Of a DNA stretch of 52,452 nucleotides, positions 26,469 through 48,770 are shown piece by piece. Source of the DNA: Escherichia phage EcoM1. The stretch lies in the sequence record PQ818760.1; one strand, given 5' to 3'. Position numbers and translations under genes: made by a program. The stretch's first letter is position 1; each line of letters opens with the position of its first letter. The notes under the pieces were generated by a model. That model worked only from the letters and a program-made list of their open reading frames with translations, did not search any database and was not told where the DNA came from.

Positions 26469-27335
26469 TTAGAACGGCATACCCGTACCGCCAGCAGCAC
26501 CACCTTCTGCTTCACGCTGTGCTTTTGCAGCAGCCTGTGCTTCCAGTTCAGCTTTCATAGCTGCATCAACTTCTTCATCAGAAGCCTGATTCGGTACAGC
26601 ACCTTCATCGGCAGGTTTACCGCCTAACAGCGCAGACAGCTTAGTCTTGTAGAAATCAACACCGGAAGTAATACGGTTCTTGATTGCATACGGAGATTCG
26701 CCACCTGGCAGTTTGTTGAATACTTCTAAGTCTGGCTCAGACATGTCAAAGAAGACAGTTGGGTTAACCAGAGCTTTAGCTTCTTTCTTCTCTTTGGATT
26801 TCATCGGGGAGAAAGTAGCTACTTTGTTTGCAACCTGGCCAGCATTCTTACCTGACTGCTTGGTATACTGAACAATGCCAACAATCAGAGGTTCGCCCAA
26901 CCAATCCGGCAGGTTCTTGGCAGGATGGCCCTGAATACCTTGTTCCAGGTTAGGTTTAACTTCCAGTGCATCAATCGCCTTAGCGAATTTGTAGATGTGG
27001 GAGTTCTCACCCATGAAGCCGTCAGCATTATAGGTAAACTCAAAGTCAAACCAACGCGGCTTGTCTTCAAGATTCTTCGCCATCATGATGCCGTCATCTT
27101 CGTCTGGGTCTTGAACCATGACCATTTTACCTTCACTGTCAACTTCTTTCATGTACTCGTCGAGCAGTTCGAAAGTCACCAGAAGTTTCAGAGATGGAGT
27201 AGGATATTTAGCAGAACCAGGCTGTAAGCCCAGGTCGATAATACGGCAGACACGAGCAGGATAACCACCCGCTTCCAGTAATGGTGCAGCAGAAGGAGTC
27301 TTGTTCGAGGCCAGTGTAGGAGCAGCAAATGCCAT
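26469..27335 (-). CDS. putative ssDNA-binding/annealing protein
   Basis: 288 aa at the position of an SSB gene between DNA polymerase and exonuclease; acidic C-terminus ending ...GGTGMPF. Family not verifiable by eye. Confidence 0.3.
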   Translation of the reverse strand: MAFAAPTLASNKTPSAAPLLEAGGYPARVCRIIDLGLQPGSAKYPTPSLKLLVTFELLDEYMKEVDSEGKMVMVQDPDEDDGIMMAKNLEDKPRWFDFEFTYNADGFMGENSHIYKFAKAIDALEVKPNLEQGIQGHPAKNLPDWLGEPLIVGIVQYTKQSGKNAGQVANKVATFSPMKSKEKKEAKALVNPTVFFDMSEPDLEVFNKLPGGESPYAIKNRITSGVDFYKTKLSALLGGKPADEGAVPNQASDEEVDAAMKAELEAQAAAKAQREAEGGAAGGTGMPF

Positions 27336-35121: not shown

Positions 35122-35200
35122 TTGTATATACCTTATATTGAATAGTTTTGCACGCCACGGTGACGTGACTTAGATAAAAATTAAAGAGCCTTTCTCTTTC

Positions 35201-35221
35201 CACATCCAACTAATGTTTCAG
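35201..35221 (-). promoter_or_regulatory. phage promoter-like element
   Basis: + strand cacatccaactaatgtttcag; gene-strand reading ctgaaACATTAGTTGGATGTG; 80 nt upstream of the ATG at 35121. Confidence 0.4.
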
Positions 35222-36699: not shown

Positions 36700-37422
36700 A
36701 GGAACTCTCCAATTTTCGATTCAATGTTTGTGACTTCTCTTCTCATCTTTTGGCCCAGGAACAGGCCACAGGGTAGCGCAGGAAGGCCGAAAATCGGGCC
36801 ACTGCCTACCGTTTGTGTCAATTCTGGATAACTGCATTGGTGAAGGGTTACTCCCGTTAGGGTGCGATACGCTAATCACATGAGTGTCGTCGCCTTGCGG
36901 CTCAGGCGTGTCACAGAGGCTTTGCAACCCTTCCCAATACATTCACCCAATCCACCTGCTTTGGCATAGCTGGTGGCGCGGTTTTGTGCGGATTATGCCA
37001 CTCTAAGCCCTGTTTGTCCGACTTCCTCAGAGCACCAGCGGCTTGTGGCACAAACCTATTTTCGAATGACTAACATAAGCATGAGGCATAACCCTCTAAT
37101 TATTCAGCCCTAACAGCTTGCTTATTTAGTTCCAATTCATCCCAATACATCGCCTATAACAAGTGAATAGCTTTTCTGCGAAGAAGTATTCCGGCCCTTT
37201 GGCCTATGTTAAAAGATAAATGTATATGATGGAAACATTCCATCGAAAATAACTTTGTAGAATGAGTCGAACATTCTCGCACGATGCGGCCGCAACGGTC
37301 TACCGAGTTACAAAGTTATTATCTGATGTTGTTTCTTCAATTCCAACTAATGTTTCAGAATTATTCCAATATTCCAAACAAAAAGAATAATAAGAATAAA
37401 TTAAAATAAATGAAGAAAGTGC

Positions 37423-37458: not shown

Positions 37459-37482
37459 CTTCCCTAAGTGGTCAGAATCAAA

Positions 37483-37499
37483 TCCCACTAATGTTTCAG
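37483..37499 (-). promoter_or_regulatory. phage promoter-like element (variant)
   Basis: + strand tcccactaatgtttcag, 30 nt right of the sigma70 -10 box. Confidence 0.35.
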
Positions 37500-40984: not shown

Positions 40985-41094
40985 GCATTGCTGAACAGTG
41001 CTTACACACCCAAAAGGTTACATAATCGTTTGTATGAGAAATCTCCCAATTATGTAGCCCTATAAAACATAAAATTTTCATAGGGCATCTCCAA

Positions 41095-41466
41095 TTAGAA
41101 CGGAATGTCGTCGTCGAAGTCTTTCGGCTCATTCGGGTTATAATTGCTCCGCTGTTGTTGAGCAGGAGCTTGCTGTTGTGCAGAAGGTTGCTGGCGTTGC
41201 TGTTGCTGTTGGGCGGCAGCTTGAGGTTGAGCTTTGGCTTTAGCTTTCTCTTCACGCTTACGCATCATTTCATCGACCTGTTCTTGGGTCATGATGGTTA
41301 ATGCAAGTGAGGTAAATTCATTACCATTTGCTTGCTTGTTCCAGCCAGATACCCAATACCAGATTCCGTCAACGTTAATACGTCCACGAATGTCAGGATG
41401 TTTTGGGTCTTTCTTGAAGCCGTTAGGACCGATAATGCCAGTGTTTACATCTGAATATTGTGCCAT
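41095..41466 (-). CDS. protein with host-SSB-like C-terminal tail
   Basis: 123 aa: about 70-aa N-terminal region, Gln/Ala-rich linker, terminal NEPKDFDDDIPF matching the acidic tip of bacterial SSB; preceded by a promoter-like element. Confidence 0.55.
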   Translation of the reverse strand: MAQYSDVNTGIIGPNGFKKDPKHPDIRGRINVDGIWYWVSGWNKQANGNEFTSLALTIMTQEQVDEMMRKREEKAKAKAQPQAAAQQQQQRQQPSAQQQAPAQQQRSNYNPNEPKDFDDDIPF

Positions 41467-41539
41467 GATTAAGATTCTCTTAAGTTAATTACAGTTTAAG
41501 TTTCAGCGACATTGCTAACCACGGAATAGCTTTGTCTCT

Positions 41540-41557
41540 CACATCCAACTAATGTTA
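41540..41557 (-). promoter_or_regulatory. phage promoter-like element
   Basis: + strand cacatccaactaatgtta, 74 nt upstream of the ATG at 41466. Confidence 0.4.
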
Positions 41558-45424: not shown

Positions 45425-45531
45425 ATGTGACACAGCAAGTGCCGAAAAACTACAATGATTAGCTTGGAGACATAATCTCTCTAAAATCTGTCACACAATT
45501 TCAGCAGAATTTACAGAGATTTGGTCTTATT

Positions 45532-45548
45532 CACATGCAACTAATGAT
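45532..45548 (-). promoter_or_regulatory. phage promoter-like element (GCATGTG variant)
   Basis: + strand cacatgcaactaatgat; same as the recurrent element with c-to-g at one position. Confidence 0.3.
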
Positions 45549-46446
45549 AAATGGACATGCTTAATTGCAACTAACTCATCTGCCAAATAGACGAATTTTG
45601 TCACAATTAAACATGCATCATTAATTACAGGTTTGCTCCTATCTTGGAATGTATTTGGCACATCAAGAAGTGGCGCAATAGGTACGGAAAACCGACCATT
45701 TACAGCATAATAAAACTAATTAAATAAAGGGTTTTACCCCAATATTGTCACAATATTTACATGCGATGATAAAGCCTTCGCTTGGCTGGAAGCCAGTATT
45801 CATGCGGGTTGCAAGAATATTGGGTCAATACTGATACAGCTATTACATGCGAAATTGGCACAAATGTTGTTACAAAATTAACATGCCAGATTGGTAGACG
45901 ATTGTATCTTCGAGGTGATTAGTCCTCTAACAATTCTGCCACATTCCAACATGCCAATTTGTAGCAATATTTACATGCCATACTGCGACAATATTGTCAC
46001 AATATTTGTTGCTCAAAATCGGGGCGGGCTACGGGATTAGTTTCGATGCTTTGTCCGACTTCTTCTCTTCTTTCGAATTCTGATTGAAAGAAAGAAGCAT
46101 GTCCAAAAGTTCCAATATTACCAAAGTTATCTCCCGGCTTGTGGGTGGGCCTTTATAATAGGAGATGGAGCAATATTGAAACAAGTGGACATGCTGATTT
46201 GCTGACTTTCTTGTAACTTAATCAAGATGGCTAACACGATGTTCTGTTGTTAGTTCAGCACCGGAAGTAACAGTTTCGAATGATAATCCTACTTCACACA
46301 TGGTTGCTGGAACTTTGTCCGGCCAAAGACAGGGAGTTCAATGATTGCCACATCATTACAACACTGTATGTTTAGTTGACATGCTGAAATGTTTCTAGAA
46401 TGATTTCAACATGACATGCGGAATACTTCTCCGTATTCTGTTACTT

Positions 46447-46464
46447 CACATCCAACTAATGTCG
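46447..46464 (-). promoter_or_regulatory. phage promoter-like element
   Basis: + strand cacatccaactaatgtcg; coordinates anchored on the plus ORF starting at 46411. Confidence 0.35.
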
Positions 46465-46680: not shown

Positions 46681-46708
46681 ATTATGCTCCAAATTGGTTT
46701 ATTAGATT

Positions 46709-46725
46709 CACATGCAACTAATGCC
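46709..46725 (-). promoter_or_regulatory. phage promoter-like element (GCATGTG variant)
   Basis: + strand cacatgcaactaatgcc, immediately after the polymerase stop and 29 nt upstream of the 55-aa ORF. Confidence 0.3.
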
Positions 46726-46743: not shown

Positions 46744-48684
46744 TTACTGACAGAAGTAGTAAGCGTGTTCGCTCATCAGCAACTCTTCTGTAACAATGTT
46801 CTCATGATACATCTGAATGCCACCAAGTTGCTTAGACAGATTCTCGAATTGATTGTTGGTTACAAAGATTTCAACATATGCTGCACGAATAACTTCCATC
46901 ATACGTGGAGCATCTGCCAGACAGCAACGGAAACAATCATGGATTGAAGTAAAGCCACGAAGACCAGCCTCTTTAGCTTTAACTGCAACAGTACGAGCAA
47001 CCAATGCGTCAATACCTTGAATGTAGTTAACAACGAAAGTACGCTTGAATTCTTCTTTAGTTGGATTGGATTCACGAATGGTCCAAGGCTTATTCTCCTG
47101 AATCTGGCCAAAGATAACACGAGTTTGAGAGTCAACACGAATGCTGAATGCCTCACAGATTTCACGAGATGGGAAGCAAGGCTTCATTACAACCTGACCA
47201 TCAGTGTGACGATATGTGATGTACTCTTTACCAAGTTCAACACAACGGTTGTATGCAGCATCAGCAGCCTTCTCAATGAACATGTTAATCTTAGCACCCA
47301 ATGCGTTATGGATTGCTTCTACACACAGTTCAGCAAATGCCTCAGCTTTCTCCATAGGAATCTGGAGCGCTTCTGTCATGTAGCTAATGAAGTCAGATGA
47401 ACCAGTTAATGCAGCTTTACCACCACCATATTGAATAGCCATGTACGGAGTTTTGATAAACTTACGACCAGCTTTCGGATTCAAGAATTCATCCATGATT
47501 TCAGGAGATGGTTTCATTGAAGAACGGTCTAATAACTTCAACAGTTCACGAAGAGATAACTGGTATGGGTCAGATGCTTTAGTCTCAGAATCAACCAGAC
47601 CTGTTGCACGAGCCATTTCCATGTTACCAGCAATGAATGCCAGATATTGAGTACCAGAACATTTAGCATCTAGGCCAAAGCCTACACGAGAATCGCACTC
47701 ACCTGTAGTCTCAAACTTGAACCAATCCAGAGCCAGACGAACATAAGTGAATGGCTTGGAAGGACGTTCAGCTTTAGGCATGTTCATCATGCGAGCAAGT
47801 GAACCAGCTGGATTCTGAGCAACATAAGTTAAACGCTTAGCAGTACACCATTCACCACCCGAAATATCTTCCAGCTCTGCCATGAACATGTTGTATGCAA
47901 TGGTAGTAGAACCATCTTCGTTAAACTTCTTAACGATGTTCTCAACATTGTGAGAATACAAGCAACGAGCAAAGTCAGATGATTGTGGGTTAGGACCAGC
48001 ACATGCTACATGATACAGACGACCACGGTTATCAGCAAAGTAGTCAGAGTACAGCTTATCCTGATTCATCATTGCTACAGCATTGTTCCAAACATGGAGT
48101 TCAGTCTGGATTGCTTCTGGCATCTGCAAGCCACCATAAGTACGTTGCTCAATCATGGACTGGATGATGCGAACCATCTCAGTCTCCACATGGTACTCAG
48201 TATCTTGCAGGAATTCGATTGCAGCTTTCAGAGTTTTGGATGGCTTAACTTTGCCACCTTTAACGAAAGGCTTGCGACGAGATTCAGATGTAACACGCTC
48301 AGTGAATGGCACTGCTGTGTCTTTGGTTGTAACCAGCTCAACCCATGTGTCAGTCTGTTGGAATGACTTGTCTTCGTTCATGGTGATGAAGCCAAAGTGC
48401 TTAGCCAGACCAATGAGGTTGATAGCTGGGTCAACATAGTGCATTGCTTTCAAATCGTTGTTATAACGGTTGGCATCAGCAATAGAAGCAGAAGCCAGCT
48501 CAACCATCGCGATGGCAGGAACAACGTCATCACGAGTGAAAGACGTCATCATCTTGAAGATGGCTAAGGCAGCAATAGCACAAGTCTGAGGCTGCATATA
48601 GTTCTGTTTCTCTTTGGCACGGTATACCAGAGCAGTGATAGCAGGAACAACGGATTTGATAGTTTGAGTAGTGATAGTAGTCAT
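46744..48684 (-). CDS. single-subunit DNA-dependent RNA polymerase (T7-type)
   Basis: 646 aa with the three catalytic motifs of T7-class polymerases: LDAKCSGTQYLAFIAG (T7 DGSCSGIQHF, motif A), KTPYMAIQYGGGK (T7 KRSVMTLAYGSK, O-helix K/Y), TSIHDCFRCC (T7 LIHDSFGT, motif C). Shorter than T7 RNAP (883 aa). ATG start with GGAG 9 nt upstream. Confidence 0.85.
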   Translation of the reverse strand: MTTITTQTIKSVVPAITALVYRAKEKQNYMQPQTCAIAALAIFKMMTSFTRDDVVPAIAMVELASASIADANRYNNDLKAMHYVDPAINLIGLAKHFGFITMNEDKSFQQTDTWVELVTTKDTAVPFTERVTSESRRKPFVKGGKVKPSKTLKAAIEFLQDTEYHVETEMVRIIQSMIEQRTYGGLQMPEAIQTELHVWNNAVAMMNQDKLYSDYFADNRGRLYHVACAGPNPQSSDFARCLYSHNVENIVKKFNEDGSTTIAYNMFMAELEDISGGEWCTAKRLTYVAQNPAGSLARMMNMPKAERPSKPFTYVRLALDWFKFETTGECDSRVGFGLDAKCSGTQYLAFIAGNMEMARATGLVDSETKASDPYQLSLRELLKLLDRSSMKPSPEIMDEFLNPKAGRKFIKTPYMAIQYGGGKAALTGSSDFISYMTEALQIPMEKAEAFAELCVEAIHNALGAKINMFIEKAADAAYNRCVELGKEYITYRHTDGQVVMKPCFPSREICEAFSIRVDSQTRVIFGQIQENKPWTIRESNPTKEEFKRTFVVNYIQGIDALVARTVAVKAKEAGLRGFTSIHDCFRCCLADAPRMMEVIRAAYVEIFVTNNQFENLSKQLGGIQMYHENIVTEELLMSEHAYYFCQ

Positions 48685-48752
48685 TTGTAAGTCTCCAAGA
48701 TTGTGTATGATTTAACTGAAACGGATTATAATAGCGTAGCCATTACACAATT

Positions 48753-48770
48753 CACTTCCAACTAATATCA
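48753..48770 (-). promoter_or_regulatory. phage promoter-like element upstream of the polymerase gene
   Basis: + strand cacttccaactaatatca, 69 nt upstream of the polymerase ATG; a TATAAT hexamer lies between it and the gene. Confidence 0.35.

Follow-up and report, generated by a model that had tools for sequence, protein, structure and literature searches.

The window examined here, the whole 52,452-nucleotide stretch of DNA from Escherichia phage EcoM1 (PQ818760.1), is of the Carltongylesvirus type (Chaseviridae), with 87–93% identity over 3 kb to ST32, SA91KD, Bp7 and Bp10, and its long ORFs all lie on the minus strand. Among small genes of the early region, some 10 kb away from the replication module, the ORF list contains a CDS (41095..41466, minus strand; ATG start, stop codon at 41095-41097) for an SSB-like protein of 123 aa with the sequence MAQYSDVNTGIIGPNGFKKDPKHPDIRGRINVDGIWYWVSGWNKQANGNEFTSLALTIMTQEQVDEMMRKREEKAKAKAQPQAAAQQQQQRQQPSAQQQAPAQQQRSNYNPNEPKDFDDDIPF; the original prediction had named no strand. 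Orthologues of this gene are phiEcoM-GJ1 gp15 and ST32 gp19, which share its position and promoter and show no material difference from it, and the N-domain of the encoded protein is 100% identical to that of the ST32 protein. Early expression was assumed from the position of the gene. We found 54 homologues of the 123-aa protein; its exact sequence is absent from a collection of 15 billion proteins, in which 95%-identical clusters are present.

A promoter-like element had been proposed 74 nt upstream of the gene. Motif counting confirmed the element itself, ACATTAGTTGGATGTGAG (41538..41555, minus strand; ending 72 nt before the ATG), as one of eight occurrences in the window, each on the coding strand, with an expected number of 0.11 (35199-35216, 37336-37353, 37477-37494, 41538-41555, 45530-45547, 46445-46462, 46707-46724 and 48751-48768, minus strand). 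The copies, which align to the core ATTAGTTGGATGTGA, are restricted to the early/middle region at 35–49 kb. The element is phage-specific rather than of the sigma-70 type: the SA91KD record marks it, ahead of the SSB gene there, as a phage promoter of the phiEcoM-GJ1 type, a consensus scan of the upstream gap on the coding strand found no sigma-70-type site, and the polymerase that reads the motif is presumably the single-subunit RNA polymerase that the phage encodes at 46744-48684. In the sequence itself, AAGAGAA (41475..41481, minus strand) resembles a Shine-Dalgarno element and lies 8 nt ahead of the ATG; it is also given for ST32 ORF19 (PMC6266442). Nine nucleotides after the stop codon, folding revealed a stem-loop with a perfect 11-bp stem and no U-run (41057..41086, minus strand); the folded 66-nt region (41035-41100) has a free energy of -21.6 kcal/mol (z -4.1), and none of 200 shuffled sequences was as stable. 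This stem-loop may act as a terminator for the phage polymerase or serve RNA processing or stability, as opposed to being a classical intrinsic terminator, and it closes what is apparently a monocistronic unit. A gene with its own promoter, ribosome-binding site and hairpin is as expected if the protein is abundant.

A PDB sequence search aligned the C-terminus of the product, RSNYNPNEPKDFDDDIPF, with that of E. coli SSB (1eqq), SNEPPMDFDDDIPF. The original prediction had called the tail almost identical to the E. coli SSB tip, and all eight terminal residues, DFDDDIPF, are indeed the same as in E. coli SSB (1eqq and 7f2n), the preceding NEP also being common to both. As delimited by these alignments, the acidic tip KDFDDDIPF comprises residues 115-123 (41098..41124, minus strand). 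Among 33 orthologues, F117, D118, P122 and F123 are invariant and D116, D120 and I121 are conserved at 90% or above; since the tail is nearly invariant in these orthologues and recurs across the wider family described below, it is not a chance resemblance. The Gln/Ala-rich linker said to precede the tip is equally evident, as a Gln/Ala/Pro-rich segment at residues 80-114 (41125..41229, minus strand) that is predicted to be disordered, with pLDDT values below 50 over residues 82-113 in the AlphaFold2 (AF2) model. Linker length and sequence differ between orthologues. The SSB-type feature of a disordered linker followed by the acidic tip DDDIPF is present in the 123-aa protein, its linker being analogous to the intrinsically disordered linker of bacterial SSB.

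The AF2 model, built with the 33 orthologues as alignment, contains a four-stranded β domain at residues 1-60 (41287..41466, minus strand; pLDDT >90 over residues 10-60), with antiparallel strands at 9-14, 26-32, 35-46 and 49-58, followed by a predicted helix, MTQEQVDEMMRKREEKAKAK, at residues 61-79 (41230..41286, minus strand); the remainder is disordered. It had been suspected that the N-terminal part is too short for a canonical OB fold, and structure prediction had been suggested as a check; the folded part consists of no more than these four strands and the helix, in the topology β1-β2-β3-β4-α, as against β1-β2-β3-α-β4-β5 in the OB fold. The helix is kept in the Chaseviridae and close relatives and is missing from many distant members of the family. 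W42 is invariant in the family, and aromatic residues predominate at positions 37, 38 and 51.

Pfam gave no match for the 123-aa protein, and PF00436 was not matched even at E<=10. NCBIfam SSB models cover only residues 41-123 or 58-123, mostly linker and tip, with scores far under their cut-offs (25.7 bits versus 260, and 22.6 versus 53.95). In a phmmer search of the PDB, E. coli-type SSB was matched over the C-terminal third (linker and tail) only; the other matches (E 0.37-6) were to unrelated proteins, and a 17-residue match to a hairpin of the Shiga toxin 2 B-subunit (E 0.13) was taken as chance. Two N-domain profiles, run against the PDB with hmmsearch, yielded no structurally solved relative. 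Foldseek, applied to the full-length model, returned nothing at E<=1e-3; bacterial SSB was not among its matches, and RPA, T4 gp32 and PriB appeared only at E 0.3-1.3. Furthermore, the family profile gives the E. coli SSB OB domain no score. Bacterial SSBs and the phage SSBs T4 gp32 and T7 gp2.5 are OB-fold proteins; as judged from profile searches and the predicted model, the N-terminal ~60 aa of the EcoM1 protein show no sign of this fold.

[quoted passage not shown] The ST32 paper names ORF19 an SSB solely through similarity to phiEcoM-GJ1 gp15 (PMC6266442), and our literature search found no characterisation of any family member and no DNA-binding experiment. Since the NCBIfam SSB models cover mostly the linker and tip, the SSB label is explicable from tail likeness alone.

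A profile built from residues 1-80 was run over 1.84 billion cluster representatives; it matched 2,576 of them at E<1e-3, of which 183 reached E<1e-10, and the majority are 70–150 aa long. Within the best 149 representatives, the C-terminal residue is F in 116 and the last two residues are PF in 101; DDDIPF is the commonest ending (29 of the 149), others being DDEIPF, DDEVPF, DDDLPF and PPF-type endings. Both SSB PHROGs were matched by all 95 sampled family members, and the succession of N-domain, variable linker and PF-ending tip is found in members of the PHROG 7364/18154 type. A tail on a short domain is therefore the architecture of the family and not peculiar to EcoM1. The only recurrent Pfam signal is DUF736 (PF05284), which was weakly matched by 7 of 59 N-domains (best E 1.2e-3) and not by the EcoM1 protein itself; copies of the family in bacterial genomes are named 'hypothetical protein' by PGAP.

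Some members depart from this plan. As annotated or translated, the tip is followed by extra residues in several of them: phiVC8 p31 continues for 14 aa after DDDIPF, a Chaseviridae copy (P0022) extends beyond IPF, and several proteobacterial prophage copies (L008, L009, L010 and L013) carry short extensions after IPF, such as AMEWR or APEVR. These post-tip extensions may reflect errors of sequencing or annotation, or else represent a tail variant of their own. At the other extreme of size, a protein of 1,158 aa (P0057) has 21 matches to the N-domain profile, forming a long array of the half-barrel unit.

As the family is already catalogued and named, the gene is not new as an object. Three points do not seem to have been stated before: (i) that the domain of the family shows no sign of an OB fold; (ii) that the SSB name, going by where the sequence models match, may derive from likeness in linker and tip; and (iii) that a host-type tip is found family-wide on a half-barrel domain.

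The half-barrel description derives from relatives of another form. Many of these, phiVC8 p31 among them, consist of two domains fused through a short loop, and the helix is missing from all such tandem members examined. An AF2-type model of one tandem relative is a closed eight-stranded barrel (pLDDT >90, pTM 0.66), which is nearest to avidin-like and designed barrels and not to nucleic-acid binders. Because fused repeats are usually equivalent to homodimers, the single-domain members are probably dimers; extending the tandem model to the EcoM1 protein, the latter is probably dimeric as well, each chain giving half of an eight-stranded barrel. For the Chaseviridae subgroup, in which the helix is kept although it is not kept family-wide, a helix-swapped dimer like that of PC4 is also possible. 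Both the closed-barrel dimer and the PC4-like dimer are non-OB arrangements.

Gene neighborhoods place the family in replication and recombination modules. In Salmonella phage PMBT28 the order is helicase - DNA polymerase I - X - PurZ, where X is the family member (AUZ95521.1, 113 aa, ending PPMDFDDDIPF; L025:30248-30589), annotated as a 'DNA-binding protein'. Acinetobacter phage DMU1 has helicase - DNA polymerase (PolA) - X - PurZ, with X at L005:6992-7294, and the SSB of SH-Ab 15497 clusters with the DMU1 protein at 90% identity. Vibrio phage phiVC8 has helicase, further along X (p31, L004:7001-7516), and then endonuclease - PolA - primase; both the DMU1 and the phiVC8 members are annotated as 'ssDNA binding protein'. 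The ssb proteins of these Z-genome phages (PMBT28, DMU1/SH-Ab 15497 and phiVC8) have the same N-domain as the EcoM1 protein, scoring 82–110 bits against the family profile, and the same linker-tip design, with the endings PPMDFDDDIPF or DLDDDLPF. They differ in lacking the helix, in the fused two-domain form of phiVC8 p31, and in adjoining a DNA polymerase, whereas the EcoM1 gene lies at its distance from the replication module. A genome scan with a narrow family alignment also located prophage loci: an Allopusillimonas prophage has Erf-like annealing protein - exonuclease - X - RusA, a Cupriavidus prophage has exonuclease - X - HNH, and in three further loci an Erf-like gene lies just upstream of X.

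The complete PMBT28 record carries no annotation of a further SSB, nor do the parts of DMU1 and phiVC8 that were examined, and the list of ST32 replication genes names no other SSB (PMC6266442). A tblastn search with an E. coli SSB OB domain and with T7 gp2.5 found nothing credible in the window, in PMBT28, in DMU1 or in the phiVC8 region. The helicase-dpoZ-ssb block of PMBT28 has been co-expressed in E. coli, where incorporation of dZ (2-aminoadenine) rose from ~40% to ~50% (PMC12944874); going by gene order, the ssb of this block is the family member, and the effect belongs to the block as a whole. The family thus appears, from its gene contexts, to occupy the SSB slot in unrelated replication and recombination modules, which favours an SSB-type job.

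The replication module of the window itself contains another tail-bearing protein. As originally noted, a second protein encoded there ends in GGTGMPF; it is 288 aa long (26469..27335, minus strand) and is encoded between PolA and the 5'-3' exonuclease. Its family (210–295 aa) is found throughout the Chaseviridae and also in Vibrio, Pseudomonas, Aeromonas and Shewanella phages, and the last residue is F, Y or W in 46 of its 49 sampled members, mostly after an acidic stretch. The protein is hypothetical in nearly every record, and an exact copy is present in the protein collection, in a cluster of 133 sequences. Profile comparison showed no similarity to gp2.5-type SSBs, hhalign giving a probability of 0.3 against both T7 gp2.5 alone and a 20-sequence profile; PDB searches gave no profile match and no sequence match for the protein, and Pfam yielded a single weak DUF669 match across the 49 family members. 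It nevertheless resembles T7 gp2.5 in having a gp2.5-style acidic, aromatic-ended tail and a position in the replisome module. Tail and gene position make the 288-aa protein a candidate for a second replisome component with such a tail, and it may serve the replisome as an SSB or hub that has gone unrecognised. Should it be the replicative SSB, the role left for the 123-aa protein would be that of an accessory hub, or even of a decoy.

Taking sequence, model and gene context together, we think it somewhat better than an even bet that the 123-aa protein binds ssDNA through a non-OB domain and serves as a phage hub connected to the SSB partners of the host. The ~60-residue β domain would pair with a second copy, as an eight-stranded barrel or a PC4-like dimer, and the dimer would bind ssDNA exposed during phage replication or recombination, with the conserved aromatic positions possibly supplying base stacking. 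The disordered Gln/Pro-rich linker would then present two host-type tips per dimer, and the DNA-bound protein would recruit proteins that dock on DFDDDIPF. Its tip readers could be host SSB partners (for example Pol III chi, PriA, RecQ, RecJ, ExoI, RNase HI or Ung) or, alternatively, phage annealing or replication proteins that may have evolved to read the same tip, for which the HK620 SSB tail described below offers a precedent. The protein is encoded by a self-contained genetic unit, comprising the phage-type promoter, a good ribosome-binding site and the closing hairpin. Several of the observations above weigh against this reading, namely that linker and tip alone can explain the SSB label, that the nearest folds of the tandem model are not nucleic-acid binders, and that the replication module, from which the gene is remote, has its own tail-bearing protein and possible replicative SSB.

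The original prediction had posed a choice between a minimal phage SSB and a tail mimic. Its structural suspicion has held up, and between the two alternatives context favours an SSB-type job. As a mimic, the protein would be a tail decoy, a dimeric or oligomeric scaffold that does not bind DNA and, by flooding the cell with tips during host takeover, titrates host SSB-interacting repair, restart or nuclease proteins off SSB. We consider this rather unlikely, although the domain is non-OB and without a recognisable DNA-binding fold, the tip is identical to that of the host, the gene lies off the replication module among small early genes of the host-takeover type, and that module encodes another protein that could be SSB-like. 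One would not expect a decoy to take over the slot of SSB, and the family fills this slot beside polymerases, helicases and annealing proteins in phages in which no other SSB was seen. The invariance of W42 and the largely conserved aromatic residues at 37, 38 and 51 may also speak against a mere scaffold.

As a sub-variant of the ssDNA-binding hub, the protein might be PC4/Sub1-like, that is, a β1-β4-α helix-swapped dimer serving as a replication, recombination or transcription cofactor. Its β4-α topology equals that of the PC4 repeat (review PMC7549692), and the best Foldseek match was MoSub1, a PC4 homologue, at E 0.13 and a match probability of 0.77, with four more MoSub1 chains listed. 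However, all of the fold scores fall short of significance, none of 59 N-domains matched PF02229 or DUF2128 at E<=1, and the C-terminal domain of human PC4 scores 6.6 bits against the family profile. The helix is moreover missing in many members, including all examined fused forms, and the fused form models as a closed barrel, so that we regard this sub-variant as unlikely.

Similarly improbable, in our estimate, is an adaptor whose β domain binds a phage polymerase, RNA polymerase, dsDNA or another partner while the tail brings in SSB partners. Small up-and-down barrels are typically ligand- or protein-binding scaffolds, and the phage supplies an RNA polymerase and a replisome of its own, which would suit such a role. 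The family is found, however, with very different replisomes and with prophage recombination modules, for which ssDNA is the only obvious common ligand. Finally, an ordinary but short OB-fold SSB, as the database name and the SSB-type linker and tip would suggest, is close to refuted and very improbable indeed, given that Pfam, NCBIfam and the AF2 topology provided no confident full OB-fold match of the kind that the original prediction had named as its refutation, that bacterial SSB is absent from the fold matches, and that the E. coli OB domain gets no score from the family profile.

In this family the SSB linker and the tip that recruits partners are joined to a different and much smaller β domain. 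The family comprises thousands of sequence clusters, including the ssb beside DpoZ/PurZ in 2-aminoadenine phages used in engineering. If its members bind ssDNA as we favour, they would be a structurally unrecognised class of SSB and a compact, portable link of foreign replisomes or recombineering proteins to host SSB partners. If they do not, a widely propagated annotation would be wrong and the proteins would be mimics of a central bacterial interaction hub; should the decoy reading be true, the family-wide 'SSB' annotation would be an artefact of tail similarity.

Among known systems, T7 gp2.5 (PF21265 / DUF2815) has 232 aa and an OB fold, and its tail is adapted to T7 proteins. It binds ssDNA, and its acidic C-tail ending in Phe recruits replisome partners (DARNA preprint); the preprint, which deals with phage SSB sensing, covers the SSBs of T7, T5 and T4 only. 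PC4/Sub1-like proteins (human PC4, MoSub1, the T5 PC4 homologue 4bg7 and YdbC) are dimers of a β-β-β-β-α repeat of ~65 aa and provide the best, though weak, fold matches; they have no sequence-profile relation to the EcoM1 family, and an SSB-type tail is not described for PC4-like proteins (review PMC7549692). Phage HK620 encodes an SSB of 21 kDa that, like E. coli SSB, runs as a tetramer; its C-terminal hexapeptide resembles the host tip, and loading of the adjacent annealing protein Sak4 depends on this hexapeptide (PMC5928155). Prophage members of the EcoM1 family likewise adjoin Erf-like annealing proteins, while in the window no annealing protein was identified beside the 123-aa gene. With bacterial SSB (PF00436, TIGR00621), the 123-aa protein shares a three-part plan of folded N-domain, disordered Gln/Pro-rich linker and acidic tip. 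The N-domain of bacterial SSB, however, is a five-stranded OB barrel of ~110 aa that assembles into a tetramer, whereas that of the EcoM1 protein is a domain of ~60 aa with four strands and a helix, likely dimeric and with putative DNA binding.
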